DNA of 64,000 nucleotides from an uncultured Verrucomicrobia subdivision 3 bacterium (GTDB taxonomy: Bacteria; Verrucomicrobiota; Verrucomicrobiia; Limisphaerales; UBA11358): NCBI GenBank assembly GCA_903842235.1, contig CAIMLG010000162.1, forward strand, positions 3,115 to 67,114, given 5' to 3'. A model generated the notes under the pieces. The model saw only the letters and a list, made by a program, of their open reading frames with translations, did not search any database and was not told where the DNA came from. Below, in pieces: positions 1,618-60,588 of the stretch. Positions within the stretch are counted from its first letter, which is position 1; every line of letters begins with the position of its first letter. Position numbers and translations under genes: made by a program.

Positions 1618-1644
1618 CGGCGGAAGGGCGACGGGGCGGGCTTT

Positions 1645-5772: not shown

Positions 5773-5958
5773 ATGGCTGAAGGATATTGCGTCAAATGCA
5801 AGGCCAAGAAAGAAATTTCTGATGGCGTTGAAGAAACGATGAAAAATGGCCGGAAAGCCATTAAGGGCAAGTGCCCGACCTGCGGCACGGTGATGTTCAA
5901 GATTCTCGGTAAATCCGCCGTCACCACCCCACCGTCGGCCACCCCGCCGGCGCTCTGA
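5773..5958 (+). CDS. small zinc-ribbon protein (DUF5679-like)
   Basis: MAEGYCVKCKAKKEISDGVEETMKNGRKAIKGKCPTCGTVMFKILGK has two CxxC pairs with the spacing and flanks typical of the DUF5679 family. Confidence 0.65.
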   Translation: MAEGYCVKCKAKKEISDGVEETMKNGRKAIKGKCPTCGTVMFKILGKSAVTTPPSATPPAL

Positions 5959-5985
5959 TTTAGTCTTCTGATCTCCTGATTTATT

Positions 5986-7158: not shown

Positions 7159-7185
7159 TTTTCCAAAACCAACCCGATTTGTTTC

Positions 7186-7212
7186 AAACCCACGCCCGTC
7201 GTGGTTTTTTTT
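7186..7212 (+). terminator. putative intrinsic terminator after the NDK-like gene
   Basis: CCACG (7190-7194) / CGTGG (7200-7204) form a stem with a 5-nt loop, followed directly by a T8 run. It sits between convergent genes (stops at 7158 and 7220). The stem is short, so support is moderate. Confidence 0.45.
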
Positions 7213-7219
7213 CTTTTCC

Positions 7220-10750: not shown

Positions 10751-10797
10751 ACGCGGGCAAGTTCGCAGCCGCCGGGACGTTCGTCAAGCAGGGCGGA

Positions 10798-22700: not shown

Positions 22701-23246
22701 ATGAAAAAGCCTATGAAAAAAGACCGCGACCAAATCGAGTTCACGGAAGAAACCGCCCTGGCATTCTTTGCCCGCCATCTGGACGGACTGAAATGGAAAT
22801 ACAACCGCTTCGCAGACCGTCCGGTCCTGTTCTGCGGTTTCAACGGCGGCGATGTCCTTTGGGATTTCAACATGGTCACCCGCCAGAAAAGCGACGGCGA
22901 TTTCCTGCTGTCCGTCAGCTCCTTCATTCCCAACAAAGCTCGCCCCGAACGCCGCGCCGCCGTGGCCGAGCTTCTCACCCGCATCAATTGGGATCTGTCC
23001 TTGGGCTGTTTCGAGATGAATTACGCCGACGGCGAAATCCGCTTCCGCACCAGCATGATTCTGCCCGGTGCCGACATCACCGACGCCATCGTCGAGCACC
23101 TTGTTCGGTCAAATCTTTGCATCGTGGACGAGCGCATGCCCCAGATCATGGCCGTGCTGTATTCGGATGTCACCTCCGAGGACGCCCTGAAACCCAAGGT
23201 GGAAAAACCAGCGGCAGCGACGGAACCCCGCTTTGACTTTAATTGA
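22701..23246 (+). CDS. YbjN-like (type III secretion chaperone-like fold) protein
   Basis: The pattern FARHLDGLKWKYNRF...VLFCGFNGGD...AELLTRINWDLSLGCFEMNYADGEIRFRTS...IVEHLVRSN matches the YbjN/DUF1821 family layout. Confidence 0.6.
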   Translation: MKKPMKKDRDQIEFTEETALAFFARHLDGLKWKYNRFADRPVLFCGFNGGDVLWDFNMVTRQKSDGDFLLSVSSFIPNKARPERRAAVAELLTRINWDLSLGCFEMNYADGEIRFRTSMILPGADITDAIVEHLVRSNLCIVDERMPQIMAVLYSDVTSEDALKPKVEKPAAATEPRFDFN

Positions 23247-23584
23247 ATCGTCATCCGGCAATCATAAAACGCAAATGAAGCAGCTCACCACAATCCTCGT
23301 TGGCCTGGTGGTGTTGCTCGTTTTTCAAATATTAAAACGCCACACCCGCCAATAAAGAAATGCGCGGGACATGAAAACAGCCATTCCCATTGAAATTCAA
23401 CCTTGCCCCCACAAGTGGGCGACCTAACCTTTCTCTAACATTTTCCAATTCATGGGAATCGGTTCACATTCTTCTAGGCTGACACTTGCGGCTGGCAGGT
23501 GTCGCGCGGCAAACGGGGGCAGACAATGCCTCGCCGATTCTACCCCGATTATACTAGCAAACGTAAATGGCCCGCGTCTGACCT

Positions 23585-24811
23585 GTGAAAGTTAATCCCC
23601 AGACATTTTTCAACTTTTGCAGCCGGCACGTTTCATTGCTGCGGGGTCTGGCGGAACTATCCGGCGAATGTTCTGAGCTGGAGGTAATGCGCCTCATCAA
23701 GATTCATTCCGCGGATCAGGAAGAACTTCCCCAAACGGTTTGGCGCAATCTCCGCGAATTACAGATCCTTGTCCCCTCCGAACCTGGCGGCGACGACTAT
23801 TTGATGGCAGAACCGGTGGCCGGTTTGCTGGCCTACCTGCAAAACGAGGCGAATCCCGCCACGCCGGAATTGATTCGCGGCTATATCCAGTCCCTCGAAT
23901 CATTGGGGCAACGGCTATCCGCCGCTTTGACCGTGGAGGATGTTACGGTGGTTAGGCTGGCTTTCGACGAAATAACCGTGACACTTCGCCGCATCTACGC
24001 TGACTTGGAGCAAACCCATCACGCCGTATTGACGGAAGTTGCCGCCTACAAAACTCAGCGTTTTAACATCAGCGTCCGTGATAAATTTCGGCGCATAGTA
24101 TATTGGATGGACCGCTACGTTGAACCGATGATTGCGCTGGTTCGGGCCGACGGACCGATGCGGGCGGCGTTCGACGAGATCGAAAGGTTGCTACATCAAG
24201 CCCGGACGCAGGCATTGTTCAATGACCTTCCGGCGTTGGATCGTAATCTTCGCCATCTTCGCTTGGTTGGCACCCATGCGCTTCGCGTATTCATCCAATG
24301 CCGCAAGGAAATCCAGCCCCTCTATGAAACCCTCCGGCGGTCGAGCCTCATCGCCGAGGGCGCGGCCTTGGCCCTGCAAAAATTGCAGAACGAAGGCATC
24401 TCCGGTTGGGGCACGGTCCCATTGATTAACGTCTGTTCACTTCGGATCCAAAATGTCCCCGGCGACGGGGCCATTGGTCTCGCCCTGCGCCGGATTGTGG
24501 AGCATCCGCCCGAACCCCCGCCGATCTTGGACCTTTCCAAGGAAGATGTTGCCCCGGTCGCCCTGGATCGTCGCCGCTGGCTCGACGACTTGCCCGAACT
24601 CGTGCGGCCAGAACTGCCCGTGGACGATTTGCTTGGCTGGCTAGTCCGCCGTCATCCCGAAAAAGGACTGCCTGATGTCCTCGCCGGCCTGACGGAGATT
24701 GTTTTCCACCCGGATTTCGAGGCGCGCTTTCTGGATTCCAGTTCGCGCCTATACCAAACTGCCACCGGTCAGCTTTCCGCCTGCCCGGTTCATATAACCT
24801 CTCATGATTGA
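23585..24811 (+). CDS. jetA: Wadjet JetA / MksF-like kleisin-type subunit
   Basis: 408 aa, GTG start in the track, mostly helical. It is first in a 4-gene set with MksF-MksE-MksB-MksG order and sizes. The assignment is mainly by synteny with jetC and jetD. Confidence 0.55.
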   Translation: MKVNPQTFFNFCSRHVSLLRGLAELSGECSELEVMRLIKIHSADQEELPQTVWRNLRELQILVPSEPGGDDYLMAEPVAGLLAYLQNEANPATPELIRGYIQSLESLGQRLSAALTVEDVTVVRLAFDEITVTLRRIYADLEQTHHAVLTEVAAYKTQRFNISVRDKFRRIVYWMDRYVEPMIALVRADGPMRAAFDEIERLLHQARTQALFNDLPALDRNLRHLRLVGTHALRVFIQCRKEIQPLYETLRRSSLIAEGAALALQKLQNEGISGWGTVPLINVCSLRIQNVPGDGAIGLALRRIVEHPPEPPPILDLSKEDVAPVALDRRRWLDDLPELVRPELPVDDLLGWLVRRHPEKGLPDVLAGLTEIVFHPDFEARFLDSSSRLYQTATGQLSACPVHITSHD

Positions 24812-25361
24812 CCTCCCACAACTTGGCGATATTTTCGACCGGCTCAAACGGGGTGCCCACCTTGGCCCCGAAGACGAACCGTTTTATTCCAATCTTGTCG
24901 CGCGCTACGACGACTACGCCGCTTATTTTGCGCCGCTCGGTTTGCGCCTGATCCGCCATCCGCGCGAGTTTTTCTATTTCGATCCGGAAAACTCTGAAAG
25001 CGTCCCGGACACCCTGCCGCGCATCGCCATCTTTTCCTACATCATGGTGGACTTCGCGGCCAACCAGGGGCAGCCACTTGAGGAATACATTTTCAGTAAA
25101 AACTTCCTCATTAGTTCCCTGCCGCATTTTTCATTCGACCGCTACGCCGCGCTGTTGCGCCAGGTTGACATTCACGATGCGAAGGGACTCGAAAGCATCT
25201 TGCAACAGATGAAGCGAATTGGTTGGGTGCATATCCTCGGTCCGGACGAGTTTCGCTTTTTGCGTCCCTTCCATCGCGTATTCGCGCGGTGCATTGAGCT
25301 CGCCCAACCGCACGCGCCCAACGCCACTGCCGCCGGTGACAGTCCTAACCCCGCCCCCTGA
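24804..25361 (+). CDS. jetB: Wadjet JetB / MksE-like subunit
   Basis: 185 aa. Its start overlaps the jetA stop by 8 nt. Position and size match MksE/JetB. The assignment is by synteny. Confidence 0.55.
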   Translation: MIDLPQLGDIFDRLKRGAHLGPEDEPFYSNLVARYDDYAAYFAPLGLRLIRHPREFFYFDPENSESVPDTLPRIAIFSYIMVDFAANQGQPLEEYIFSKNFLISSLPHFSFDRYAALLRQVDIHDAKGLESILQQMKRIGWVHILGPDEFRFLRPFHRVFARCIELAQPHAPNATAAGDSPNPAP

Positions 25362-25364
25362 ACT

Positions 25365-28085
25365 ATGCCCACCGGACCACGAAAAATCATCCTCATCCAC
25401 TCCGGGCGTTACGAATATGCTGAGGTGGAAATTGCCGGCACGTTGCAAATCGTCGGGCCAAACAACACTGGCAAAACCACGCTCATCAACACGCTCCAGT
25501 TCCTCTATTTGAATGACATCCGGACAATGGATTTCGGTGGCTACAAATGGGAGCAGACCCGCGCCTTTTACTTCCCCAGTGAACACAGCTACATGCTGTT
25601 CGAGTGTTCCGGCGCCCAGGGGGATTGTGTCATCGGCTGGCGCGGACAAAGCAAGGCCAGTGGTGGTGAACCGGAACGGTTTTTCTTTTCCGGCCCCTAT
25701 TTGTCTGATGATTTTTACGATGCCAAGCATCAGGTTCGCCCCCCGCGCGAGGTCAGCGCCCGGCTGGCCTTGAAGAACTTCCGGGCCATAAAAAGCGCCG
25801 AGGAACATCGCACCTTGCTCCTGCCTCCGGATGGCGCTGGCTCCACTGGCCAGGGTATCGTCGCCTTGCGAGATGATGATAAATATCATCAGTTCCGTGA
25901 GACTCTGAAAAACTTGCTCACTCTCAGCGCGATTTCCCAGGAACAAATGCGCGACCGTGTGTTGATGCTCGCCAATATTCCCCCGGATAAGCTGGCTTTG
26001 GATGCGCGGACGCTTTTTGGCGAAGATTATGACCTGATTCGCGCCCGCCGTGAAAAATTGCTCCGCTTCAAGGAGCATCGGCCTCTGGTCGGCGGTCTGG
26101 TGGATAAATTTGCCAGCCGCGAACAGGCTCGCGGTGAACTGATCTATCGCTGGACTGACCTCCGGGCCAAGCGGCAGGCGTTTGATACTGAGCACCAAAA
26201 GGGTTTGGATCGGCTGAAATCAGAAAAAAAGAAACAGGGCGATTTGGCCCAATCGTTGTTGGTGGAAATTGATCGTCTGGGGAAAGAGTCACAAGACTAC
26301 GCCATTGAATTGGGGCGGGTGGATGAAAAGCTTAAGCAATTGGCCGCCGGCGACCGTGAATTTGCCCAGTTCACTCCGGAGTTGGAGCGGGCCGCCATTC
26401 AGGCACTCGAACAAAAAGCCCGCAACCTGGACGACCAGTTGCGCTCTGCGGAAAATGAATCGCGCGCTAAAGCCCTCGGTAAATGCGAATTTTTCACCGG
26501 TCAGGTTCGGGACAAGCAGCAAACGATTGACCGCTTTGACAAGGTCGTCATCACCGCCCTGCGCAAACATTTCAGCGACGACGAATTGAATCCGCTGTTT
26601 CGGCTGCTCAATCCCGAGCTGTTGGAATATCCCGTCGTCCAGGGTGCCATCGAGATACACCGTCAGGCCGAACTGGTGTCCACCCTGCGCGAGTTGGTCT
26701 CCCGGCTTAAAAACAATACGTATCAGGATGAAAACCTCACGATTGCTTTTCGTGGGGAAAAAGCCCCCGTGGCCGGCGTGGCCAATATTGAAGCCATTCG
26801 CGATCGGCTGGCGGAAGATCAGCAAAGCCTGGAGCGCTGGCAGAAAATTCTGTCGGCTATCGAACAGCGGGAAGCTCTGGAAAAGCAGCGAAAAGAAATT
26901 ACCGAGGAATTGGAAGGCTCGCCGGCTCGCGAGGGAAAAATCCGCCGGCTGTTTCGCTACGAGCAACATCTGTCCGCCAAGCAACACGAGAATCGCTTGC
27001 AGGCGGAGTTTAGAACCATTGACGAAACCATCAAGACGGCCAAGGCTCGCATCGGTAAATTAGATGGCGACCAGCGCAAAGCTGCCAATGCGGAACGCGA
27101 GGCCCAATCCGCCATTCTCAAAAAAGAGAATGAATATGGTGTGAGCATATCCGAATTTAACCGGTGCGTTTTCCCGGAATTTGCCGCCAGAAGCCGGACG
27201 CCGGATGAGGCCATCCCCGATGATTTTGGAGGTGCCGTCGCCTTGGTCCTTCGTCAGCAGGACGAAGAAGCCCAGTTGTCCAACGACATACGCAATGACA
27301 TGTCAGAAATTGAACGTTGGTTCAGTGATGATTTTCAAGGGGTGGATGAGAAAGAAACGGTCCGGTTGCTCCGCGAAGAATTGGAAGCCTTGACCGAAAA
27401 AGAAGCCGCTTTGGAACGCGATTGGAATGCCCATATTCATACTCTTCGCGCGACCTTCGACCAGATTTTAAAAAAATTGGGGGATGTCCTCAGCGCCCGG
27501 GATGGGTTGAATCGCCACTTTGCCAAAGTCCAGGTCTCTGACCTGAAAGCCGTCAAAATGGAGGTGCTGGAAGACAGCCAGACGGTGAACTGGATTCGTC
27601 GCCTCGCCGCGTATGAGCCGGGCGGCTTGTTTGAGAATGACAAGCAGCGGGAATCCGCCCTCGTTAATTTCCGGACCAAACTCCAGGGCAACCCCCAGGT
27701 GCGCTATGCCGACCTCTTCACGCTTGGCTTCACCGTCGTCGGTGCGGATGACCGTGCGCATACCTACCACGATTTTCGCCAGATTGAATCCCACGGCACA
27801 ACCGTGACCATCAAGGTCCTGTTCAATTTGCTGCTCCTGAAAAGCCAGTTGAAACGTGATGATTGTCAGGTGCCGTTCTTCCTCGACGAAATTCAGATTC
27901 TCGACCCGGCTAATCGCCACGCCATTCTCGACACCGCGCGCAAACTCGGTTTCATTGCCATCACCGCCGCGCCCGAGGCCGTCAGCGAAGTGGACGCGCT
28001 CTACTTCTTGCAGCCACGCAAGGGTTCGATCGTCCTGCGGCAGAAACACCGCGTCGGCGTCCAGCGCCAGCCCATCCCCGCATGA
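25365..28085 (+). CDS. jetC: Wadjet JetC / MksB-like SMC-family ATPase
   Basis: N-terminal Walker A GPNNTGKTTLINTLQFLY. A long central coiled-coil-like region rich in E/K/R/L/Q. C-terminal Walker B/D-loop VPFFLDEIQILD. Confidence 0.75.
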   Translation: MPTGPRKIILIHSGRYEYAEVEIAGTLQIVGPNNTGKTTLINTLQFLYLNDIRTMDFGGYKWEQTRAFYFPSEHSYMLFECSGAQGDCVIGWRGQSKASGGEPERFFFSGPYLSDDFYDAKHQVRPPREVSARLALKNFRAIKSAEEHRTLLLPPDGAGSTGQGIVALRDDDKYHQFRETLKNLLTLSAISQEQMRDRVLMLANIPPDKLALDARTLFGEDYDLIRARREKLLRFKEHRPLVGGLVDKFASREQARGELIYRWTDLRAKRQAFDTEHQKGLDRLKSEKKKQGDLAQSLLVEIDRLGKESQDYAIELGRVDEKLKQLAAGDREFAQFTPELERAAIQALEQKARNLDDQLRSAENESRAKALGKCEFFTGQVRDKQQTIDRFDKVVITALRKHFSDDELNPLFRLLNPELLEYPVVQGAIEIHRQAELVSTLRELVSRLKNNTYQDENLTIAFRGEKAPVAGVANIEAIRDRLAEDQQSLERWQKILSAIEQREALEKQRKEITEELEGSPAREGKIRRLFRYEQHLSAKQHENRLQAEFRTIDETIKTAKARIGKLDGDQRKAANAEREAQSAILKKENEYGVSISEFNRCVFPEFAARSRTPDEAIPDDFGGAVALVLRQQDEEAQLSNDIRNDMSEIERWFSDDFQGVDEKETVRLLREELEALTEKEAALERDWNAHIHTLRATFDQILKKLGDVLSARDGLNRHFAKVQVSDLKAVKMEVLEDSQTVNWIRRLAAYEPGGLFENDKQRESALVNFRTKLQGNPQVRYADLFTLGFTVVGADDRAHTYHDFRQIESHGTTVTIKVLFNLLLLKSQLKRDDCQVPFFLDEIQILDPANRHAILDTARKLGFIAITAAPEAVSEVDALYFLQPRKGSIVLRQKHRVGVQRQPIPA

Positions 28086-28951
28086 AGGATCCGGAAAACA
28101 AATTCATTCTGCTGACGCGCCTGTTGGAAATTGGCACGGTGGCGCGCTCTGCTTGTAGCCGCGAATTTATCGCCGCGCTCGCGCCGCTGTTGGATTCCGG
28201 CGTCGTCACGGAAGACAAGTCCGGGGCTGGCCGCCGTCTGGTGGTTCGGAATCCCACGGCGTTGCAGGCTTTTATCCGGCATCACTTCCCGGATGTTCTT
28301 GTGCCGGCGGGCACTTCCAGCCGCGTCGCGGGCGTCTCCCGCTTTCGGGATACCAAATCGGTTGCGAGCGACCTGCCGGAAATCGTCACCGTCCGCACGT
28401 GGCGGGAAGAAGCGTTGCGTTCCGATGGTAATTCCATCGGTGCGGCCACGGCCACCGCCGCGCATGGCGTTTTTTCCTTTTTGCTCGCCGATCCCGCACG
28501 CTTTACCTTGCACGGCCCTTGTGCCCTCGTGGAAAACCCGGCGGTTTTCACGCAGCTTGAACAGTTGCAGTTGCCGCCGAGTCTCGCTCTCTATGGCCAC
28601 GGACGATCCTCCAATCGGCTGCTCGATTGGCTTGCGACCCAGACTGCGCCGGATTTCCAGTTGCTCCATCTTCCGGATTATGACCCGGTGGGATTGGACG
28701 AGTTCAGCCGGCTGCGGGCGCGGCTTGGCCCGCGCGTGCAGCTCTATTTGCCGGAAAATCTGGCCGCATTATTTGCCCGCCACGGTAACGGCGACTTGCT
28801 GCAAAAATCCAGCACTCGGTCGCTCCTGGCAAAAATGCGCCAGAGCCAGATCGCCGAGGTTCGCACCGTGCTCGCCTTGATCGAAAGACACAATGCAGGT
28901 TTGGAACAGGAGGCGTTGCTCATCAACCAGACGCTAAAGGATTCGCAATGA
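28082..28951 (+). CDS. jetD: Wadjet JetD / MksG-like Toprim nuclease (short form)
   Basis: CALVENPAVFTQL (Toprim Glu, ENxxxF), LHLPDYDPVGLDEF (DxD) and the terminal GLEQEAL match the DUF2220-type JetD C-terminal domain. At 289 aa it lacks most of the usual N-terminal domain. Confidence 0.7.
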   Translation: MKDPENKFILLTRLLEIGTVARSACSREFIAALAPLLDSGVVTEDKSGAGRRLVVRNPTALQAFIRHHFPDVLVPAGTSSRVAGVSRFRDTKSVASDLPEIVTVRTWREEALRSDGNSIGAATATAAHGVFSFLLADPARFTLHGPCALVENPAVFTQLEQLQLPPSLALYGHGRSSNRLLDWLATQTAPDFQLLHLPDYDPVGLDEFSRLRARLGPRVQLYLPENLAALFARHGNGDLLQKSSTRSLLAKMRQSQIAEVRTVLALIERHNAGLEQEALLINQTLKDSQ

Positions 28952-30270
28952 TGGAAACGTTCTTAACCGCCTTTGATCCCTCCGATTTGCCCGGAACCAG
29001 TATTGATCCACTTGGTTTTGAAAGAGGCTACTTGTTTCTGGCGGATAAGATTCTTCCCGGTTTGACCAATGTTGCTTCCCGGCCGCGTTACTTCGCGCTT
29101 CTGTGCGCCGGCATCCAGTTGAGCGGCGATCAGGATTCTCGTTCGGAGCGCGAGCAGGTTGCCCATCGGCAGGAAACCATTCTGCGTTTGGAACGATTCT
29201 GGGCGCTCGCCAATGTGCTTGCGCGACCGGATAAAAGTGGCGGCGTGCGCGGCGTTACCTATGCGCAGGATTATGTTAAGGAATTGCTGCGGCGCGGGGA
29301 TAAACGCACCACTGCCGGCTACCGGTTGCTCTCTCGGCAGTCCCAGTATGGTGGCATCGGCATGTATGCCAATGTCGCCGATGGTATGCACTTTTTTAAC
29401 CGGGAAGATTTCATTCTCACCCCGGCTCTGGGCGAAGTCGCTGCGGAAGCGTTTTTGGCAGAAACCGGATTGCCCGGCTCAATTCGCCGGGCAGTCATTG
29501 ACGATACGGATGTCCCGTTGGCAACTCTGGCGGATTGGGGGGAACGCGCTCACGTCGAAGCCGAGGTGAAACCGCGCGAGGCGGCTTGTCTGGATGAAGC
29601 CTTGCACTACAACGATGTCCGGTCGCGCATGACCGGATTGCTCCGCGATCATCCGGCCAGGAGCGCCGAGGAAACAGAATTGGAACGGCTCGCCCGGACC
29701 TTGCGCACGCTGAAGCGCAACGGCCAGCATCAGGATCTGCAGGAAGGGATTGAATGCATCCTTGCGTTCGAATCCTGTTATCAGCATGTGCTGCTTTCGC
29801 TCGAACGGATTCTCTGGCTCTGCCGCCATCACGCGGCCGCCTCTATCACGCTTGCGGAGTTGGCCAACGATCCCGTGATGTTATTGGTGAAAACCAATCT
29901 GCCCACTCGCGTTCAACGCCTGCTCGATGTCCTCGATCACGGCACCATGCCCGGTTTTCGCGAACATCTTGACCGCCTTTCCGACGTTCGCCGGTTCCTG
30001 GAAACCGCCAGTGGTTCCGTGCAGGACAATTCCGCGTTCGTCGATGCCGTCATATCCCGTCATGCCGACGTCCAGCACGGGAAATTTGACCGGGGCCGCC
30101 GCAAGATGCCGTGGCTGGAGCGTATCAATTCACGACTGCAACTCACCATGACCCGGTCGGGTGGCATGAATCGGGAAGCCACCGACCCGTCACATATCAA
30201 TCCCCATCCGTATCGGCTTGGGGCCGCGGATGCTTTCATTTCGGCGTCTAAGAAGGGCATGGCATCATGA
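28948..30270 (+). CDS. hypothetical 440-aa protein, no recognisable domain
   Basis: Uninterrupted ORF with ATGA overlaps at both ends (with the jetD stop and the PLD start). Composition is like its neighbours. The N-terminus is FDPSDLPGTSIDPLGFERGYLFLADKILPGLTNVASRPRYFALLCAGI. No catalytic motif was identified by eye. Confidence 0.7.
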   Translation: MMETFLTAFDPSDLPGTSIDPLGFERGYLFLADKILPGLTNVASRPRYFALLCAGIQLSGDQDSRSEREQVAHRQETILRLERFWALANVLARPDKSGGVRGVTYAQDYVKELLRRGDKRTTAGYRLLSRQSQYGGIGMYANVADGMHFFNREDFILTPALGEVAAEAFLAETGLPGSIRRAVIDDTDVPLATLADWGERAHVEAEVKPREAACLDEALHYNDVRSRMTGLLRDHPARSAEETELERLARTLRTLKRNGQHQDLQEGIECILAFESCYQHVLLSLERILWLCRHHAAASITLAELANDPVMLLVKTNLPTRVQRLLDVLDHGTMPGFREHLDRLSDVRRFLETASGSVQDNSAFVDAVISRHADVQHGKFDRGRRKMPWLERINSRLQLTMTRSGGMNREATDPSHINPHPYRLGAADAFISASKKGMAS

Positions 30271-32381
30271 AGGATAATCAGGACATCAGCTCACGCAAGT
30301 TGATCGACCGCTTGGTTCCTGATCCGCATTGGGGTGCCATGCAAGGCTTGCTCGCCACCACCTTTGACCTCCGTCCGGAATTTCTGGAGACGGATTTTTT
30401 GCCCTCCGTTTTCGGTCTTGGCGCGTGGGATGACCAGAGTTGGGCCACCCGTATAGCGCTGGAGAAACGTCTTTTTGAACTCGACGCGGCGGTCATTCTC
30501 GCCGAAGCCCGACGCTACCGGGGGCGCCCGCGCTCGCTCCGCTTGGACGTGCGCCCCGCAGTCAGCCCGCGTGGTTCCGTGCTCCATGCCAAGGTCACTC
30601 TCCTTTTATTTGAGCGCGCCGTGCGTTTGATTGTGGGTAGCGCCAACCTCACGAAGCAGGGTTATCGCGAAAATCGTGAAGTCATCGCCGTCCTCACGGC
30701 CACTCAAAAATCCAAAAAAGAGGCCGCGCTCATCACTCAGGGATTGACGGGCATGGAGTCGGCTTTGTCCTCCTGGCTCACGCCGGAGGCTCGCCAGCTG
30801 ATTCGCCGTTCCATCGCGACTGTGCAGCCCTGGCTTACCGGCAATCCTGACCCCGATACAGCCTTTGTCTGGTCCAACGGACAAACCCGTTTGTGGCGTG
30901 AGTTTGTCGGGCGCTGGCCCGTCGGCGAGCCGGTCAAACGCATCTCCATCATCTCGCCTTTTTGGTCTCAGGACGCCAGCCTGACGCTGGCAACGTTTTT
31001 GACCGAGCTCAAAAAGGTCGGGCCGCTTGCCTCCGAAGCCGAAGTCCGTCTGCTGACTGATGCCTTCAAAAATCCCAATGGCGAACTCATCCCGGTTCTG
31101 CCGGCGGCTTACGCCACCCAAGATTGGCAGGCCCTTGGCGTCAAGGCCACCGCCCAGCCGGTGAACCCCGAGGTTCACCCGGAGGAATTGGGTGGCATGG
31201 AAGGTTTCACTGCCACGCGCGCACTCCATGCCAAAGTGGTGTTGGTCGAGGGCACTCGCACTGGTTTGGCCTACCTCGGTTCGGGTAACTTTACTGGACA
31301 TGGCTGGGGTTTTATTCCCGGCGCAGACAACGCGAACACGGAGGCCGGGGTGATACTGCGCCGATCCCTTCAAAGTTCTGACTTTGATCACGTGCTGCCT
31401 GATTTGGTCGGCCAGCCCATTTTGCTGTCGCACGCCAACATTCACAGTCTGCAAGCGCCGGAAATGGGGCCGGCCGATGAGCCTTGGCCTGAGTTTATCC
31501 GGCAGGTTCTCCTCGCGCCCGTTACGGCCGATGAAAACAAATTGGAACTTCGCATCGAAACGGCCGCTGATGGGGCCGGATTTCTTTGGTCTGCCTGCCT
31601 TCTGTCTAATGACGGCGTTCCGGGTGAAACCCTCGTTCCTCTCGAACAAACCCAGGACGCAACCAAGACCAGTTTCACCGTTTCGCTATCGGACTTGGTT
31701 CTCACCCGCTTGCTTACCGAGCAGGAAATTCAGATTTGCTGGCCGGATTGTCCGGCGGGTCGGCCGTTTCCTCTGAATGTGGAAGCCTCCGCTCGCGCCA
31801 GTCTTCCGATCTCGCCCGGCAAACAGACCATTGAGGAAATTCATCTGATTTCCTACTACCAAGGCCGGATTGCCTGGGAGCAACTCTTTCCTGACCCGGA
31901 GGCTGGCGGACCATCGGGCGACCAGACTGCCATCACCCCCGCGCCTGCCTCCGGCGTGGATAAGTCGCGTATCCAGTCCTATCAAATCCGTGAATTTGTC
32001 GAGGCGCTGGCCGGTTTGAATCAGGACCTGCGGTCAGCAACCCAATCCGAACCCGCCATGCGCTTGGCTTTGCTCGGCCCGGTCAGTCCCTTCGCGCTGG
32101 CTCAAACGATTATCGACGCCGTCGAAGCGGGACGCCGCACCCCCACCGCCGCTGGTTTCCAGTTGGTCGAAATTCTCGCCTGCCTCCAATCGGCGCGATC
32201 ACATTCGGTTCCCGAACGGTTGGCCGATGTCTGGCGGCAGCACCTTCAGCAGGTGCAGGGTAAAATTTCTCGCCTGTTGGAAAAACTGATCGCGGATCAT
32301 TCCGCTTTGTTCACGTCCAACCGTTCATTCGGGCGCTACCGGAAGGCCGTCTTCAACGGTGAAACGACCCTCCCATCATGA
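30267..32381 (+). CDS. phospholipase D-family (two HKD motifs) nuclease-like protein with ~300-aa C-terminal extension
   Basis: VLHAKVTLLLFERAVRLIVGSANLTKQG and ALHAKVVLVEGTRTGLAYLGSGNFTGHG are two HxK...GSxN motifs. Confidence 0.8.
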   Translation: MKDNQDISSRKLIDRLVPDPHWGAMQGLLATTFDLRPEFLETDFLPSVFGLGAWDDQSWATRIALEKRLFELDAAVILAEARRYRGRPRSLRLDVRPAVSPRGSVLHAKVTLLLFERAVRLIVGSANLTKQGYRENREVIAVLTATQKSKKEAALITQGLTGMESALSSWLTPEARQLIRRSIATVQPWLTGNPDPDTAFVWSNGQTRLWREFVGRWPVGEPVKRISIISPFWSQDASLTLATFLTELKKVGPLASEAEVRLLTDAFKNPNGELIPVLPAAYATQDWQALGVKATAQPVNPEVHPEELGGMEGFTATRALHAKVVLVEGTRTGLAYLGSGNFTGHGWGFIPGADNANTEAGVILRRSLQSSDFDHVLPDLVGQPILLSHANIHSLQAPEMGPADEPWPEFIRQVLLAPVTADENKLELRIETAADGAGFLWSACLLSNDGVPGETLVPLEQTQDATKTSFTVSLSDLVLTRLLTEQEIQICWPDCPAGRPFPLNVEASARASLPISPGKQTIEEIHLISYYQGRIAWEQLFPDPEAGGPSGDQTAITPAPASGVDKSRIQSYQIREFVEALAGLNQDLRSATQSEPAMRLALLGPVSPFALAQTIIDAVEAGRRTPTAAGFQLVEILACLQSARSHSVPERLADVWRQHLQQVQGKISRLLEKLIADHSALFTSNRSFGRYRKAVFNGETTLPS

Positions 32382-35300
32382 TTACTCCCTCGGCAGATTT
32401 TGATCTGGGTCGCGACAACCGCATGAAGGAACGTCCCGAAGACGCCCGCCGCCAGTGGCGCACGGTCGAGGTGATCTTGGAGCGGTTTTTCCATCCCCGG
32501 TCCGGCCAGCGGTTCGAAATTCAAATCCTGGCAGATGAAGTCGGCATGGGTAAAACCTTTGTCGCCCTGGGGTTGGCCTATTCCATCTTGGCCCACCTGA
32601 AACAATCTCGCACCGAGCCGGATCTGGATGGCTGCTATCAGCGAGTGTTGGTTCTTACCCCAAACAATCACGCCCTCTATCGCAAATGGGTTCGCGAGGT
32701 CTCCGAATTCAAGCGCCGCTGCGTTCCTCCTGAAAGTCAATCCGCGGATATTTACTTTGCCCCGCTGGCGGTGGATCGCTTGGATGATTTGGCGGTCGCC
32801 CTCCGTAAACCCGGCCGGCAACCCCAGGTCATCGTCGCGCGCATGGGGTTGTTCGGCGGTGATAAATTGCTCGATTATGAACTCAAGCGCCGCTTCACCC
32901 TCGGTGTCCTGTTCCGGTATTGGAGCAATCGGTTCAATAATGAAAACCGCCACCGTCTGCTCAAGGGCGCTCCAGAGGGCTGGCCGTCCCGTCCAGAAGG
33001 ACTCACGGATTTGACGGAGGACGAAGCCGGACGGCTGCCTTTCACCGAGGATGAATTCTTGGCCATCCTCAACCGGCTCACGGGCAAGGACACCCCCGAC
33101 CTGGAATCTCTTTTGGAGACTTGCCGCGAAGTCGCCGTTCCGTTTTTTCGTAACCGGGAGGATGCTTTCCGTAAAATTGGATACAAGCTCATCAATATTT
33201 ATCGCCTCGCCACGCTTCGCAGTATCCAGCGTGATTTCCCGTTGCTCATTGTGGACGAGGCTCACAACTGGAAAAACGGCCCGCAGTTGGGAGCCAACGG
33301 ATTTTTCGAGTTCAGGGATTTTATCGCCCCGCACGTTCGCCGCGCCCTGTTGCTCACGGCCACGCCGTTCCAACTGCGTCCGGAGGAAATGCTGGAAATC
33401 CTGAAGGTATCCGATGCCATGCAGCCATGTCCCACCCAGGCTGAATCTTCGGTCCGGGTCGGGCGTCTGGAAAAATTCCGCGAACAAATCATCCGGCCCG
33501 TGCTCGCCAACGCGGAAAGTCACAGCCGCCATTTTAGCCGCGCTTGGGTTCGGATTCCCCGCCGTGTCGCGGCCCCGGCCCTCGACGAGGGGTGGAACTC
33601 GCCCGGTTTGACCATCGCGCGGGAAAAGATTGTCACGCTCGCAAATCTCGATGGTGTCATCACCGATCATGGCGCGGATTTGGCTAAAATAATTTCCGGC
33701 GCGGTCGCGGGCATCGACCCGGACATTCGCCAGTTTCTCCGGGAAGCCCTTTACCTCTTCGCCTATAACGCCGACCTGTCCCGGGAGCTTGGTAAACTGG
33801 TGATCCGCCATCGTCGCCAGACGGACCACCGTCTTTTCCTCATCGGGGCTGAATATGGCCCGCCCTTGCCGGGCACGCTGGCTCGTCCGGATGGACACAT
33901 ACTTCATGCCGCCCCCGGCTTGGACATTCGCGGTGAGGCGGAACTTCCTCAATACCTGCTCATGCGTTGCGTGTCCGAGATGAAAGGCGGCAAAGGCCGG
34001 TCATCACTTGGCAGCGACCTCACGGGCTGCTACTCGACCCTGCACGAAAGCGCCGAGGGTCGTCGCGTTCAGCAATCTTTGGGTGACGCTCATGATGCCC
34101 GGCGTTACCTCGAAATCCTGTTTGATCTGGTGAATGAACGCCACGACCCGCGCCACCCGAAACTTTCCGCCGTGGTGGATGAATGTCTGCGCCATTGGCA
34201 GGCCGGTGAAAAAGTCCTGATTTTTTGTTTCCGCACCAACACTGCAGAGCGGCTCCATGAAATTCTCAGTGACCGCATTCGCGACGAATTGGCGGCGGGC
34301 AAAAAAAAGTGTCTCGGCGGCGAGGGCCAGCTCAAAACCTTGCGTGCCCGTCTCACCAGTCGCGACCGCGATCTGGTCGGCCTCGGTCTGGACCGCTTGC
34401 TTTGGTCGGTGCTGTGGACTCGCGACCAGAGTTGCCCATTCACCCCGGATCAATTCTTTTTAGCGGACGACGAACTCGCGGAACTCGCCCGGCTCTCCCT
34501 TAAATTTGGTATCGAGGTAAGCGGGGAACGGGTGGATCGCGTGTTCCTGTATCGCGCCACGGAACACATTCTCGCCCGCCGTTTTCTAAAGGTGGGCGTG
34601 CCGCATAAATCGCTGGAACAGTTGCTCACCAGTATGGCTGCCCTTGATTGGATTGCCAATGCCTACGGCCTGACGCATGAAGGCGAGGAAGACGAGGAAA
34701 GCGACGAAAGCATCTCCCTGCGGGGTTGCCATACCAATTATCCTCCCGGCGACATCGATCCGTCTGCCGCCAAAATCACGACGTTGGCAGACGAACTGCG
34801 GGCCACTCGGCTGCGGGCGCGCGGGCAAAAACAAATTCCAATTCTCGACTCCTACGCCTTGTCCCCCAGTCTTTGGCTCGGAGCTGACCCGCAACGTGTT
34901 TGGTTGGCGATGGGCACCGATGGCAACGCCGCCACGTTGCGCGGGATCCACCAGTTTCTCTGGCAATTGACGGTGCCGGATACGCACGCGTCAGACGACG
35001 CCAACGCAACCGAAGTGGACGGCGTGGATTTTTTCACCCGCGCGCTGGTGCTGCAGGCGCTCCGGCGGGCTGTGCTCCGGGATTCCGTTCTGCTCCGTCT
35101 TTTACCGCAAAACGGCGATCTCCACGAATCCGGCTGGGGCGAATTGCTCGCGGCCCGTTTCTTTGATCATCTCCCGAACCAGCACGAAAGCATGGCCCAG
35201 CGCATTGTCGTGTTTTTGGAAGATATGAAAGCTTCCAGCGGACACATCGCCAATCCCGATTCGGCCCGGGGCGCGCTCCATCAGGCCACTCTTCTGCGGG

Positions 35301-35833
35301 ACCAGCAGTTTGTCGCGCTGGTGAACGGCAGCACCAAGGCGGCCACCCGTGACCGCATCTTCAGCGGTTTCAATACCCCGCTGCTCCCGGAAGTGCTGGT
35401 TTGCACGTCGGTCGGTCAGGAGGGCATAGACCTGCACCGCCATTGCCGCCAGGTGGTGCATTACGATCTGGCGTGGAATCCGGCCGTGCTCGAACAGCGC
35501 ACCGGCCGCGCCGACCGGATTGGCAGCAAAACGTTTCGCGAACGCGATGCCGCCGCCGGCACCGCCAAAGTTTGCCTCGAAATTGGCGTGCCATTTCTCG
35601 CCGGCACCTACGATGAGCGCATGTATGAGGAACTTCGTTTGCGTGCCCAGACGTTTGAAGTGCTCACCGGCGGCGAATTTGCCGCCGACCACGCCGATGG
35701 CCAGGAAGAACCCATTTCGGCGTCGGGCGAAAAGCTTGGCAGTGCCGTTTTACCGCTCCCGCCGCCGATGATTGAGCATTTGCGCGTAAAACTTCAGGTG
35801 TGGGATGCACCGCTCGCGCCAGTTCCCAAATGA
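32378..35833 (+). CDS. SNF2-family helicase/translocase
   Basis: ILADEVGMGKTFVALGLA (motif I), LLIVDEAHNWKN (DEAH box), LLLTATPFQLRPEEMLEIL (motif III), TSVGQEGIDLHRHCRQVVHYDLAWNPAVLEQRTGRADRIGS (motifs V-VI). Confidence 0.85.
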   Translation: MITPSADFDLGRDNRMKERPEDARRQWRTVEVILERFFHPRSGQRFEIQILADEVGMGKTFVALGLAYSILAHLKQSRTEPDLDGCYQRVLVLTPNNHALYRKWVREVSEFKRRCVPPESQSADIYFAPLAVDRLDDLAVALRKPGRQPQVIVARMGLFGGDKLLDYELKRRFTLGVLFRYWSNRFNNENRHRLLKGAPEGWPSRPEGLTDLTEDEAGRLPFTEDEFLAILNRLTGKDTPDLESLLETCREVAVPFFRNREDAFRKIGYKLINIYRLATLRSIQRDFPLLIVDEAHNWKNGPQLGANGFFEFRDFIAPHVRRALLLTATPFQLRPEEMLEILKVSDAMQPCPTQAESSVRVGRLEKFREQIIRPVLANAESHSRHFSRAWVRIPRRVAAPALDEGWNSPGLTIAREKIVTLANLDGVITDHGADLAKIISGAVAGIDPDIRQFLREALYLFAYNADLSRELGKLVIRHRRQTDHRLFLIGAEYGPPLPGTLARPDGHILHAAPGLDIRGEAELPQYLLMRCVSEMKGGKGRSSLGSDLTGCYSTLHESAEGRRVQQSLGDAHDARRYLEILFDLVNERHDPRHPKLSAVVDECLRHWQAGEKVLIFCFRTNTAERLHEILSDRIRDELAAGKKKCLGGEGQLKTLRARLTSRDRDLVGLGLDRLLWSVLWTRDQSCPFTPDQFFLADDELAELARLSLKFGIEVSGERVDRVFLYRATEHILARRFLKVGVPHKSLEQLLTSMAALDWIANAYGLTHEGEEDEESDESISLRGCHTNYPPGDIDPSAAKITTLADELRATRLRARGQKQIPILDSYALSPSLWLGADPQRVWLAMGTDGNAATLRGIHQFLWQLTVPDTHASDDANATEVDGVDFFTRALVLQALRRAVLRDSVLLRLLPQNGDLHESGWGELLAARFFDHLPNQHESMAQRIVVFLEDMKASSGHIANPDSARGALHQATLLRDQQFVALVNGSTKAATRDRIFSGFNTPLLPEVLVCTSVGQEGIDLHRHCRQVVHYDLAWNPAVLEQRTGRADRIGSKTFRERDAAAGTAKVCLEIGVPFLAGTYDERMYEELRLRAQTFEVLTGGEFAADHADGQEEPISASGEKLGSAVLPLPPPMIEHLRVKLQVWDAPLAPVPK

Positions 35834-36014
35834 ATCGCCTGCCATCGCGTAAATACCGCCATCCTCCAAACCATTGAACAATCCACGCCCAGTGTCCGGA
35901 AGCATCCGAATATCTGGACCAGCACATGGTTTTCGACCCTGTAAAAGAAACCGTGTGCTTCACCGGCGACGACCGTCTCACAACGAGCCTCCAGACGCCA
36001 CCACGTTTGCCGCC

Positions 36015-38069
36015 TTACACCAACCCCATCGCCATCATGGCCGCACGTGTCGGGCTGTCATAAAACTGCCATTGAATGGCGGTAAGGATCGCATCCGGCA
36101 CTTCCGCGAGGTCGCGTTTGTTCTCGCTGGGAATCAAAATGCGTTTGGCTCCAGCCTCCACGGCCAACTGCATCCGTTCCGGCAACGACGTCACCCGCAG
36201 CAGCAACCCTTGAACGCTCATTTCCCCCAACACCACGGTTCGTTCCAGAACCGGCTTTTCCAGAATGGAGGACACTAGCGAGATGAAAAAGGCGACCGCC
36301 GTCTCCGCGCCTTCTTTGGCTTGGTTCAGGTTGATGGCCTGCAAATTGAAATCGTAGCTATCCATATCCTTGGTGATGCCTAGCGTCTTGAGATTGGCCC
36401 GCAGATAGGCATCAGCTGTTTTGATCGCTTCTTTCATCCCCTTCGAAAGATTTCCCAGCGGAATGATTCGACCTGAACCCGGATTGGCTTGCGCCTGGAG
36501 CCGGAATAGCGCGAGGCGATTGTCGCTCGCATCCGTGCCAATGGTGTAAATGCTGCCTGGCGCCAGTGCGCCTTCGGAAATGAGACTGCCGCCGCCGAGC
36601 TCGGGCACCCGGACGAAGGTCTCCTGGCCATTCTCCAAATCGAAGTAGGAAAAACTCGTGTTCCAATATTCCAATCCGCCCATCTTCTTGAGCTGTTCCT
36701 TTACACGGCGGCGCATTTCCATCGCGTATTCCACATATTCCCGGAGCTCTTCCTTCGTCACTTCGCCGTCGGGATGCAGCAGCTTGATCAGGCCGGAGAT
36801 GATTTTTCGCACGGCCTTTTGATCGCGGCCCCCGAGGTGCGAACCAAACTTGAAATACCGTTCCGCATAATCCACGTAACTCGACTTGCGCAGTTCGCGA
36901 AACACTTCCGCCAGATAATCCGTCACCAAGCCAAAATGATTCGTGTAGGCGTCATCGTGTGTTTTCTGAAATTCCCAGCCGGGGATGTAGGCATGAATCC
37001 GGTCGTAGAACGCCGTGTCCATTTCCTTGGGCATCGGGTAGAACAGATGCGACGTGCGCAGGATGGTCGAAATCTCGCCGTCAATATTCCCCACGAATAC
37101 CACCGAACCTTCGGCCTGGATGATGTCGCGCCCACGGCTGAACGCGCCGTCTTCCATGTAGCCCTTCATGATGTTGATTCCGCTCTTGTCGGAAAAATCA
37201 ATGCCGGCCGCTTCGTCAAAGGCCACCACATCCCAGAGGCAGACTAGTCCGCGCTGGCCCGAGGCCAGATTTACAAACATCTGCGCCGTGGTCGTCTGGC
37301 CGCCGGACACCAGATGGCAATACGGGCTCATTTGCTGATACACAAAGCTCTTGCCCGTGCCGCGCGGCCCCAATTCCACCGAGTTGAAATTTTTTTCCAC
37401 GAACGGCACCAGGCGCAGCAGGCAATGCAGCTTCCGGCGCTTGGTGTAATACGGATGATTTGGCTCGTAACCCATCGTGCGCATCAGGAAGTCCATCCAC
37501 TGGTCCCGCGTGAATCGCTTCCGGGCGGCCTTGTATCCATCCATGTTCCGGTTGGAGAGTTGGATGGGCCGGATCTTATCAATGAAAAATGGCCGGTTTT
37601 GTCCTTTGAAAATGAACGAGTCATCGTAACGCAGCGACACCTCGGCCCAGACGCCACCCATCAATAGCCGGTCATGCTCATGCACGGCCTTGTCGTCAAT
37701 GTTGATGTAGTCCAGGTTCAAATTCGACAGGCTGGCCCAATACTTGTCGTGCGTTTCCACCAGCTTCGCGGACACCTTGTCGATGACTTCGTAGGTCGTA
37801 TGCTGCTTGATGGCTGATTTCACCGATTCCCGCTCGTCCGGTTTTACGTATTTTGCCGACAACGTCTCGCGCACAAACTCCAGCCCCTCGTTGATGGCCG
37901 TCTCGTCGGTGGAGGCGCAATATTTTCCCAGCAAAAATTCAATCACAAAGGCCGGCACGCCAAACGACGACCGCATTCGCCGCAGCAGGTCTTTACGCAC
38001 CACCAGACCCGGGAAAGCTTCGATCGCCAGCCGGTCCAGTTCATCCAGTTCAATCGTGTTCTTTTGCAT
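36015..38069 (-). CDS. brxL: BREX Lon-like protease/ATPase BrxL
   Basis: N-terminus LDRLAIEAFPGLVVRKDLLRRMRSSFGVPAFVIEFLLGKYC, Walker A GPRGTGKSF, Lon-protease-like C-terminus VVLGEMSVQGLLLRV...AGAKRILIPSENKRDL. It is the last gene of the BREX operon. Confidence 0.9.
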   Translation of the reverse strand: MQKNTIELDELDRLAIEAFPGLVVRKDLLRRMRSSFGVPAFVIEFLLGKYCASTDETAINEGLEFVRETLSAKYVKPDERESVKSAIKQHTTYEVIDKVSAKLVETHDKYWASLSNLNLDYINIDDKAVHEHDRLLMGGVWAEVSLRYDDSFIFKGQNRPFFIDKIRPIQLSNRNMDGYKAARKRFTRDQWMDFLMRTMGYEPNHPYYTKRRKLHCLLRLVPFVEKNFNSVELGPRGTGKSFVYQQMSPYCHLVSGGQTTTAQMFVNLASGQRGLVCLWDVVAFDEAAGIDFSDKSGINIMKGYMEDGAFSRGRDIIQAEGSVVFVGNIDGEISTILRTSHLFYPMPKEMDTAFYDRIHAYIPGWEFQKTHDDAYTNHFGLVTDYLAEVFRELRKSSYVDYAERYFKFGSHLGGRDQKAVRKIISGLIKLLHPDGEVTKEELREYVEYAMEMRRRVKEQLKKMGGLEYWNTSFSYFDLENGQETFVRVPELGGGSLISEGALAPGSIYTIGTDASDNRLALFRLQAQANPGSGRIIPLGNLSKGMKEAIKTADAYLRANLKTLGITKDMDSYDFNLQAINLNQAKEGAETAVAFFISLVSSILEKPVLERTVVLGEMSVQGLLLRVTSLPERMQLAVEAGAKRILIPSENKRDLAEVPDAILTAIQWQFYDSPTRAAMMAMGLV

Positions 38070-40650: not shown

Positions 40651-41093
40651 GGCGTGTTTTTCGGTTCGCTGGTCCCGGACGTTGGCAGCGGGGCCAAAGA
40701 CCCGCTGATGCCTCGCCACACGATCTCGCTCCGCAGGCTGTTGATCAATTGGGCGCGCAAGCTGGGGACCTTTGATTTCTTCTGCATCGGTATTCCTAGC
40801 ACTTTTCCAATCTCCAAAATGACTTGGCTGCCGAGGAAACCCACTTCCTTTTCCAGCGCGCTTTCGTTCGTCGCCAACGACTTGAGCCGTTCCAGATAGG
40901 CGCCATCCACGGCAATCACCGGTTTGGGAATTTTCGGCACTTTCGGCCAGGGACTCGTAAGGCTGACCCGCACGCGCGCGCCGCGTTGCGTCATCCGTTC
41001 CAACTCGGCGGGTGAATAAAGTTTCTCCAACCAACTGCGAACACTCTCGGGTGCCGGTTCTCCGGCTTTCAAAATAAATTCTTTAGTTGCCAT
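40647..41093 (-). CDS. hypothetical 148-aa protein coupled to the ParA-like ATPase and pglZ
   Basis: Its ATG lies inside the last codons of the ParA-like gene (11-nt overlap). Its stop overlaps the pglZ ATG (ATGA). No motif was recognised. Confidence 0.55.
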   Translation of the reverse strand: MATKEFILKAGEPAPESVRSWLEKLYSPAELERMTQRGARVRVSLTSPWPKVPKIPKPVIAVDGAYLERLKSLATNESALEKEVGFLGSQVILEIGKVLGIPMQKKSKVPSLRAQLINSLRSEIVWRGISGSLAPLPTSGTSEPKNTP

Positions 41094-42072: not shown

Positions 42073-42094
42073 ATTTTTAGCCCAATCGTCGTTT

Positions 42095-42919: not shown

Positions 42920-42922
42920 AGA

Positions 42923-45972: not shown

Positions 45973-45975
45973 GGT

Positions 45976-60582: not shown

Positions 60583-60588
60583 AGGGCG

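Follow-up and report, generated by a model that had tools for sequence, protein, structure and literature searches.

Three-gene PLD nuclease and SNF2 helicase locus in a Verrucomicrobiota defence island as a probable deep branch of the Azaca/PDC-M27 superfamily

Main finding

This study deals with three adjacent, co-directional genes (gene 1, gene 2 and gene 3, together referred to as the trio) in a stretch of 64,000 nucleotides from an uncultured Verrucomicrobia subdivision 3 bacterium (assembly GCA_903842235.1, contig CAIMLG010000162.1, positions 3,115 to 67,114 of the forward strand), which is called the window and to which the positions given here refer. Gene 2 encodes a protein of the phospholipase D (PLD) family and gene 3 an SNF2-type ATPase of helicase superfamily 2 (SF2). 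The trio is probably a deep-branching member of the superfamily that comprises the anti-phage system Azaca and the candidate system PDC-M27, carried as a promoter-less, mobile cassette of three open reading frames (ORFs). It represents an incremental extension of a known system and is neither an undescribed system nor a new principle. An earlier note, made from the sequence alone, had described the trio as a defence-type module of nuclease, SNF2 motor and adaptor within a defence island, a view which our analysis supports, also with regard to the conservation of this module. The same note had regarded it as the best candidate for an undescribed system in the window; this can no longer be upheld, as a described system of the same architecture was largely found through the matches of gene 2 to ZacB, of gene 3 to ZacC and PDC-M27C, and through the links of the gene 1 family.

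Azaca was reportedly first reported by Millman et al. in 2022, and PDC-M27 is a three-gene (A, B and C) "phage defence candidate" (PDC) of PADLOC-DB v2, for which no describing paper or validation was found in the literature. The preferred target of BmAzaca is T4 DNA containing glucosyl-hydroxymethylcytosine (glucosyl-hmC). Azaca is composed of a DUF6361 protein (ZacA), a PLD nuclease (ZacB) and an SF2 helicase (ZacC), and the tentative statement in the earlier note that it combines a helicase and a PLD protein was thus correct (bioRxiv 10.1101/2025.07.10.664194). The cleavage of T4 DNA requires all three proteins, the Walker A motif of ZacC and the nuclease active site, and the protection against T4 is greater than 10^6-fold (bioRxiv 10.1101/2025.07.10.664194). 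The trio shares with Azaca the gene order, broadly the sizes of the proteins, an intact PLD active site and an SF2 ATPase with invariant GMGKT and DEAH motifs (Table 1).

The three ORFs were confirmed together with the two ATGA stop/start overlaps that had been reported for them, at 30267-30270 between gene 1 and gene 2 (read in the sequence as catcATGAagg) and at 32378-32381 between gene 2 and gene 3 (catcATGAtta). A third overlap of this kind, at 28948-28951 (gcaATGAtgg), had been missed. Here, the stop codon of a JetD_C-like ORF (28082-28951) overlaps the ATG of gene 1, and the trio is therefore the last part of an array of seven co-directional genes (23585-35833). The GC content varies little over this region (0.57-0.60), and a scan of 22900-36200 for promoter- and terminator-like sites gave chance-level counts, which are uninformative on transcription units.

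Table 1. Coordinates of the three genes, their conserved motifs, the shared cassette and the upstream operon in the window
Feature	Position	Strand	Description
Gene 1	28948-30270	+	440 aa, ATG start
Gene 2	30267-32381	+	704 aa, ATG start
Gene 3	32378-35833	+	1151 aa, ATG start
Gene 1 N-terminal block, residues 15-64	28990-29139	+	PGxSIDPLGF..GY.FLAD..LPGLTN....PRY
Gene 2 catalytic motif 1, H107-A-K109...G124-S125-A-N127	30585-30647	+	H, K, S and N 100% in 39 orthologues
Gene 2 catalytic motif 2, H321-A-K323...G338-S339-G-N341	31227-31289	+	H, K, G338, S and N 100% in 39 orthologues
Gene 3 Walker A/motif I GMGKT, residues 56-60	32543-32557	+	G, G, K and T 100% in 32 orthologues
Gene 3 motif II DEAH, residues 293-296	33254-33265	+	D, E and H 100% in 32 orthologues
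Gene 3 motif VI QRTGRADR, residues 1040-1047	35495-35518	+	Q, R, G, R, D and R 100% in 32 orthologues
Putative mobile cassette, extent	28938-35834	+	DNA homology to relatives at 80-92% nucleotide identity
Compact Mks/Wadjet-like operon	23585-28951	+	408 aa, MksE 185 aa, SMC-like 906 aa, JetD_C-like 289 aa

Homology to Azaca and PDC-M27 components

The best match of gene 2 among the PADLOC models is ZacB (2.8e-21, 74 bits, with partial coverage of the profile), followed by PDC-M27B (7.5e-13), while the match to DrmC is no better than 1.6e-8. Gene 3 matches PDC-M27C best (1.2e-39), followed by ZacC (8.7e-32, 109 bits), DrmD (9e-23), DpdE (2.4e-18) and ZorD (4.4e-8). Its Helicase_C lobe aligns to positions 792-910 of 1019 in ZacC and 737-829 of 892 in PDC-M27C, whereas on the DrmD profile it lies in the middle, at positions 539-626 of 1040.

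Gene 1 had been described as lacking a recognisable domain, and a search with its single sequence indeed gave no match to Pfam, NCBIfam or PADLOC up to E=10. The link of this component was obtained at the level of the family: when 73 diverse full-length members were compared with 5027 models, 23 of the 73 matched ZacA (best 1.6e-8) and 12 matched PDC-M27A (best 4e-5), with no match to any other of the models. All of these matches are confined to the N-terminal block. The connection is illustrated by the family member P0349, which matches the gene 1 family profile at 2.4e-43; its residues 20-70 match positions 27-77 of 396 of the ZacA profile at 4.4e-7, it matches positions 39-63 of DUF6361 (PF19888) at E=0.04, and the matching stretch maps to residues 15-64 of gene 1. 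The bridging sub-branch of P0349 is syntenic and has the same three-gene architecture. A homologue search with P0349 returned family members only, none of them with a precomputed PF19888 assignment, and a tblastn search of the bridging proteins against plasmids gave no gene labelled "DUF6361". The comparison with Azaca hidden Markov models (HMMs) that the earlier note had proposed thus leads to ZacB for gene 2, to PDC-M27C and ZacC for gene 3 and to ZacA for the gene 1 family, with none for gene 1 of the window. On these profile matches we conclude that all three genes are likely homologous to components of Azaca and PDC-M27, in the same order.

Related loci were also found on plasmids. In Methylocystis sp. 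MJC1, the plasmid NZ_CP107561 (loci L057/L058) carries a distant Azaca-like trio with proteins of 446, 707 and 998 aa (123881-127424 and 1-about 2900), which match ZacA, ZacB and PDC-M27C/ZacC, respectively. Its SNF2 gene spans the origin of the record and is therefore absent from the PLSDB gene table, which omits origin-crossing genes; a QueC-like 7-cyano-7-deazaguanine synthase gene and an XRE regulator gene lie just upstream. On three other plasmids, pairs of a ZacA-like and a PLD protein (about 530 and about 825 aa) occur without an SNF2 gene of their own: between hsdS and hsdR in a type I restriction-modification (R-M) operon of Myroides pFM-G13 (NZ_CP037428, 7929-15275; L062), after a bona fide DrmD (1e-216) in Sphingobium pSF1 (2943-11931; L056), and beside DNA methyltransferases on a Roseovarius plasmid (4184-8247; L055). 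This suggests that the ZacA-like and PLD pair is a portable nuclease module that partners different translocases.

Conservation and mobility of the trio

The trio is present in the same order and orientation in about 40 of 54 reference-genome loci from at least eight phyla, down to 32% identity of gene 1, and every examined locus that is long enough to judge shows gene 1 followed by the PLD and the SNF2 gene. The hosts belong to the Planctomycetota, Verrucomicrobiota, Acidobacteriota, Myxococcota, Desulfobacterota, Nitrospinota, Omnitrophota, Spirochaetales, Alphaproteobacteria and others; among the Myxococcota is the cultured Myxococcus sp. Y35 (NZ_CP143624.1, about 6,957,351-6,964,239). Chance falls far short of explaining that these three genes recur in an unchanged order at about 40 independent loci. 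A neighbourhood survey of gene 1 homologues had been proposed in the earlier note, according to which a lack of conservation of the three genes as a unit would speak against the module; the synteny contradicts this, with the PLD and SNF2 genes accompanying gene 1 throughout these loci.

No recurrent fourth gene was found among 118 flanking ORFs, the largest cluster of which comprises 3 ORFs. Defence genes abound in the flanks, where 232 PADLOC models are matched at 1e-10 and where MkoA, PD-T4-6 kinases, mad6 and DrmD are examples, and the neighbours at other loci include Mokosh, PD-T4-6, type IIG and type III R-M, genes resembling the cyclic-oligonucleotide-based anti-phage signalling system (CBASS) and TrwC/TraG. 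Relatives with 83-89% identity are located at unrelated sites: flanked by glycoside hydrolases, alongside the conjugation genes TrwB/TrwC, adjacent to R-M genes of type III and type IIG, or 19 nt behind a CBASS-like SMODS/S_4TM pair. In blastn comparisons with four related loci (L063, L066, L069 and L001), the homology starts at 28938-28949 and ends at 35805-35834, and with a further one (L072) it starts at 28944. The shared DNA thus begins at most 10 nt before the ATG of gene 1 and stops at the stop codon of gene 3. No shared motifs, repeats or att sites were found at the ends of the cassette, where the flanking sequences are unrelated. Because the homology is limited to the three ORFs and includes no shared upstream region, the trio appears to be a promoter-less, autonomous and horizontally mobile three-ORF cassette, a feature that had escaped the earlier note; the lack of a shared upstream (promoter) region fits the frequent position of the cassette behind a co-directional gene.

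Shortened or internally deleted copies of the cassette occur in five loci (L026, L027, L045, L047 and L048) and indicate decay in some lineages. In L048, for example, residues 2-59 of gene 1 are joined to residues 32-1142 of gene 3.

Predicted properties of the three proteins

Gene 1 encodes a soluble protein with a pI of 6.6 and without a transmembrane segment. Its family comprises at least 439 clusters at 90% identity and has no Pfam domain; the named clusters are all "hypothetical protein", apart from one "predicted DNA-binding protein", and an exhaustive profile search yielded 655 family representatives at 50% identity. The AlphaFold2 (AF2) model is confident and mostly alpha-helical, with a predicted local distance difference test score (pLDDT) of 86 and a predicted template modelling (TM) score (pTM) of 0.85. 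The structure search that the earlier note had suggested was carried out with Foldseek and revealed no relative of the model in the PDB or BFVD (E of 0.33 and 0.35 at best, with a TM of about 0.1); the transporter matches that it returned were discarded as all-alpha noise, given that the protein has no transmembrane segment. A PDB sequence search with the family profile likewise returned noise only (E about 0.2), and exact-sequence look-ups of gene 1 and of the JetD-like protein of the window found neither on record. Residues 15-64 form the most conserved stretch of the family, and residues 1-18 have a low pLDDT although they are conserved. As the N-terminal block is conserved yet partly of low pLDDT, this suggests a partly disordered element for the docking of a partner.

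Gene 2 matches Pfam PLDc_2 at 8.7e-11 and, weakly, Tyr-DNA_phospho. It had been described as a PLD protein of 704 aa with two intact HxK...GSxN motifs and a long C-terminal extension, which was borne out in all parts: both motifs are invariant (Table 1), and the C-terminal half is folded and conserved, with many invariant residues. In motif 1, the sequence shows a spacing of 20 from H to N and no Asp at +7; an "HKN"-type motif of this kind, without the canonical Asp, is also that of Tdp1. In the AF2 model (pLDDT 83, pTM 0.84), a single chain contains two PLD lobes, a beta domain (about 411-502) and a C-terminal helical bundle (about 570-696). Among solved structures, Foldseek ranks human Tdp1 first (3.2e-11, probability 1.0, with a target TM of about 0.5 across about 440 columns), followed by the PLD domain of SauUSI, an ATP-dependent restriction enzyme (3.4e-4). 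Judging from the model, gene 2 is predicted to be a Tdp1-like, single-chain, two-lobe PLD protein with the fold of DNA-acting PLD enzymes.

In gene 3, Pfam recognises SNF2-rel_dom/ResIII at residues 26-115 and Helicase_C at residues 970-1049 (7.2e-18). About 600 aa are inserted between the RecA lobes, which places the second lobe at the extreme C-terminus. The complete set of SNF2 motifs I-VI claimed for this protein was confirmed for motifs I, II, III (TATP, residues 327-330) and VI, which are about 100% conserved in the 32 orthologues. The only relatives of gene 3 among PDB sequences are RapA proteins, which are matched through the RecA2 lobe.

Upstream Mks/Wadjet-like operon

The four genes upstream of the trio form a compact operon in which the second gene encodes MksE (PF21980 at 2.9e-27) and the fourth a protein with a weak match to JetD_C/DUF7281 and to PADLOC JetD (7.4e-7). 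The operon gave no match to the PADLOC models JetA, JetB and JetC. The 408-aa protein has no family match, and the 906-aa protein, which resembles structural maintenance of chromosomes (SMC) proteins, has sub-threshold P-loop/DUF3584 matches only; neither this nor the JetD-like protein has relatives among PDB sequences, and no close relative of the SMC-like protein was found in GTDB reference genomes. The upstream Wadjet is thus atypical, being compact and divergent, and the trio is physically fused to it. The placement of the trio between Wadjet and bacteriophage exclusion (BREX) genes in the earlier note therefore holds for BREX and only in part for Wadjet. As for its question whether Wadjet always accompanies the trio, the trio has no Mks/Jet genes next to it in about 40 other loci, and the operon is for this reason regarded as context outside the conserved module.

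Apart from the window, Mks/Jet genes adjoin the trio in a single lineage, which comprises the closest relatives of the cassette (L072 and L076; gene 1 91-92% identical, gene 2 95% in L072). In both (511-10591 and 11-6374, respectively), the cassette lies 7 nt downstream of JetD, in a Wadjet operon with JetA, JetB, a JetC of 1135 aa and a JetD of 364 aa, and this operon shows no detectable similarity to the Mks-like genes of the window. The cassette thus takes up an identical position in two Wadjet-type operons that are unrelated. Promoter hitch-hiking in defence islands may account for this, because the cassette trails other unrelated genes, too; further candidate causes are chance, a preference of insertion and a functional coupling.

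Evaluation of alternative explanations

Several points weigh against the assignment of the trio to the Azaca/PDC-M27 superfamily or against a role in defence. Gene 1 of the window matches ZacA, DUF6361 and PDC-M27A not even at E=10, and the link of its family to ZacA spans only about 50-90 N-terminal residues, at modest scores. The Zac scores of genes 2 and 3 are low and arise in part from the generic PLD and helicase cores. Moreover, the comparison relies on profile models, not on the canonical ZacA, ZacB or ZacC sequences or structures. On account of the gene 1 result and of this mode of comparison, the trio is to be called a divergent variant of the Azaca kind and not a proven member. The complex, the substrate and the phenotype of the putative defence system are transferred from BmAzaca by analogy, and the modelled Tdp1-like fold of gene 2 could also mean a processing of 3' ends or adducts instead of an endonuclease. 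In this sense, the trio could be a housekeeping DNA-repair module, in which a Tdp1-like phosphodiesterase and an SNF2 remodeller clear protein-DNA adducts or blocked 3' ends, as the structural match to Tdp1, the weak Tyr-DNA_phospho matches and the RapA proteins as nearest solved relatives of gene 3 would suggest. Yet Tdp1 may rank first as the main solved single-chain, two-lobe PLD enzyme acting on DNA, and a housekeeping role agrees poorly with the patchy phyletic distribution, the wholly different contexts of close relatives, including conjugative elements, the defence-island genes in the neighbourhood, the degraded copies and the homology of all three genes to an experimentally validated anti-phage system, so that we consider a repair module very unlikely. 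Even less can be said for a degenerate or minimal remnant related to DISARM, Dpd or Zorya, consisting of a DrmC-like PLD and a DrmD-, DpdE- or ZorD-like SNF2 protein. The weak PADLOC matches listed above and the NCBIfam scores of DrmD (105.9 bits) and DpdE (96.5 bits) could be cited in its favour, as could the related ZacA-like and PLD pair adjoining a true DrmD in Sphingobium, but the NCBIfam scores remain 4- to 100-fold under the curated cut-offs (DrmD 105.9 of 610, DpdE 96.5 of 500, ZorD 14.7 of 1500, DrmC 28 of 133 bits), and ZacB and ZacC/PDC-M27C match better. The trio is adjoined by no DrmA, DrmB, DrmMI, Dpd or ZorA/B genes in either the window or the relatives, the RecA2 lobe is placed as in ZacC and PDC-M27C and unlike in DrmD, and the trio is complete and conserved. 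A remnant of this kind is therefore highly improbable and effectively refuted. With regard to membership in the individual systems, the model checks proposed in the earlier note led to rejection on the basis of scores and missing partner genes: no neighbour has DrmA or DrmB as its best model, and the sole methyltransferase near the trio is BREX PglX on the other strand, in agreement with the earlier statement that DrmA, DrmB and a same-strand methyltransferase are not adjacent and that the locus is not DISARM; Dpd genes were not detected in the flanks; Zorya was dismissed on the ZorD score; and no Mko model is found among the matches of gene 2 or the top 25 of gene 3, MkoA turning up only in some neighbouring genes at other loci.

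The trio could also be the effector arm of a seven-gene Wadjet-type system, in which the SMC-like Mks complex detects foreign (plasmid) DNA by extruding loops, for destruction by JetD and the PLD and SNF2 proteins. The ATGA overlap by which the JetD-like gene is coupled with gene 1 would agree with such a system, and so would the fact that the three closest cassettes (window, L072 and L076; at least 91% identity of gene 1) all lie 0-7 nt after a JetD gene, those JetD genes belonging to two mutually dissimilar Wadjet-type operons. In another form of this explanation, the cassette of this sub-clade would have been recruited at least two times by unrelated Wadjet-type operons, to the site directly behind JetD, as an extension of SMC-based DNA surveillance, where Mks/Jet recognises foreign DNA and hands it over to, or licenses, the SNF2-PLD nuclease. 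Against this stand the about 40 other loci, in none of which Mks/Jet genes adjoin the trio, and likewise the relatives with 83-89% identity, which lack them; in addition, no Jet model is found among the recurrent flank families, the shared DNA ends at the cassette's own start codon, and the cassette is often located behind unrelated co-directional genes, as in the case of the SMODS/S_4TM pair. A composite seven-gene system is thus unlikely in both forms, and it is equally doubtful that the position after JetD reflects a functional link. The interpretation as a probable deep-branching relative of Azaca and PDC-M27, which is carried independently of its neighbours, is accordingly preferred.

Proposed mechanism and significance

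If the trio acts in the manner of BmAzaca, its proteins would form one complex in which the SNF2 ATPase of gene 3 would bind double-stranded DNA and translocate along it, providing the step that depends on ATP, while the PLD protein of gene 2 would cut the invading DNA via a phospho-histidine intermediate. By the same analogy, gene 1 would be an obligatory structural or adaptor subunit that docks through its conserved N-terminal block, and it may help to discriminate targets such as modified phage DNA. The cassette would, in this genome, be expressed from the upstream Mks/JetD-like operon and translationally coupled to it.

Although Azaca has been validated, to our knowledge little is understood of how it works, and no role is known for ZacA. 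With the trio, the Azaca-type superfamily comes to include environmental phyla in which the genes carry the label "hypothetical" and in which gene 1 alone accounts for the large number of clusters mentioned above. At least the ZacA-like component of the window is missed by the current PADLOC, Pfam and NCBIfam models. The invariant N-terminal block is the only feature common to ZacA, PDC-M27A and the gene 1 family and thus offers a target for mutagenesis and interface mapping, and the predicted Tdp1-like, single-chain PLD identity of the nuclease is an addition to the knowledge of Azaca-type systems. Two further aspects would be of importance if confirmed, namely the pairs beside HsdR and DrmD as a nuclease module plugging into different DNA motors, and the repeated position of the cassette behind JetD.

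Rest of the defence island

Downstream of the trio, a type I BREX system is encoded on the opposite strand, with BrxL (3.5e-280), PglZ, PglX in two pieces, BrxC, BrxB and BrxA. Within the region 41083-48956 (- strand), PglX seems to be divided in two, its N-terminal half lying at 46854-48956 and its C-terminal half at 44038-45972, with a Fic/PDC-S04 gene (45976-46857) in the gap. The space from the C-terminal half of PglX to PglZ holds an AbiL-like PDC-M38A/B pair (42095-44041) and a ParA-like ATPase gene (41083-42072). The genes within BREX may be embedded accessory defence genes or may be signs of a disrupted BREX.

Further downstream (54694-63948, - strand), two giant co-directional ORFs encode proteins of 1962 aa and, upstream of it, 1119 aa. 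The 1962-aa ORF matches the PDB entry 9tu7_Y ("DEAD/DEAH box helicase", 2108 aa) at 1.1e-72, and the 1119-aa ORF has no match in the PDB. In size and order they resemble what we take to be the DruH/DruE pair of Druantia type III. On the other side of the island, upstream, the region 17987-21452 (- strand) encodes a sigma-70-like/Mor-like regulator of 239 aa, a DUF3854/AAA_25 protein of 688 aa and an unannotated ORF of 228 aa; these may be genes of a mobile-element or primase-helicase type that mark the boundary of the island.

Comparison with known systems

Human Tdp1 resembles gene 2 in its pseudo-dimeric, single-chain PLD fold and in two HxK...N motifs without the canonical Asp. However, the identity amounts to 12-14%, the beta domain and the C-terminal helical bundle are additional in gene 2, and Tdp1 has a role in repair, whereas gene 2 would act in immunity, within a complex with a helicase. 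The ATP-dependent, modification-dependent restriction enzymes of the SauUSI type share with the trio the principle of a PLD nuclease driven by an SF2 motor. They consist of one polypeptide with a target-recognition domain, in contrast to the three proteins of the trio, in which no recognisable reader of modified bases was identified. DISARM likewise combines a PLD-type protein (DrmC) and an SNF2 ATPase (DrmD) in a defence locus, and both have weak HMM matches here, but the trio lacks DrmA, DrmB and a methyltransferase, and its helicase is laid out differently from DrmD.

The similarity to PDC-M27 and Azaca concerns all three components. PDC-M27C is the best match of gene 3 overall, gene 2 matches PDC-M27B, and relatives of gene 1 match PDC-M27A (12 of 73); on the other hand, gene 1 of the window itself has no match to PDC-M27A, and gene 2 scores higher with ZacB. 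Compared with Azaca, the proteins of the trio are longer (440, 704 and 1151 aa as opposed to model lengths of 396, 586 and 1019), they occur in environmental Planctomycetota, Verrucomicrobiota, Acidobacteriota and Myxococcota and not in Bacillus as Azaca does, and the trio is here fused to a Wadjet-like operon. In common with Azaca, the trio has the A-B-C order of a protein of about 400-440 aa without an enzymatic domain, a PLD nuclease and a large SF2/SNF2 ATPase, the position of the RecA2 lobe near the C-terminus, as in ZacC, and the N-terminal block that ZacA shares with the gene 1 family (23 of 73 members). Being about equidistant from the Zac and the PDC-M27 models, the family of the trio looks like a third branch of one superfamily.

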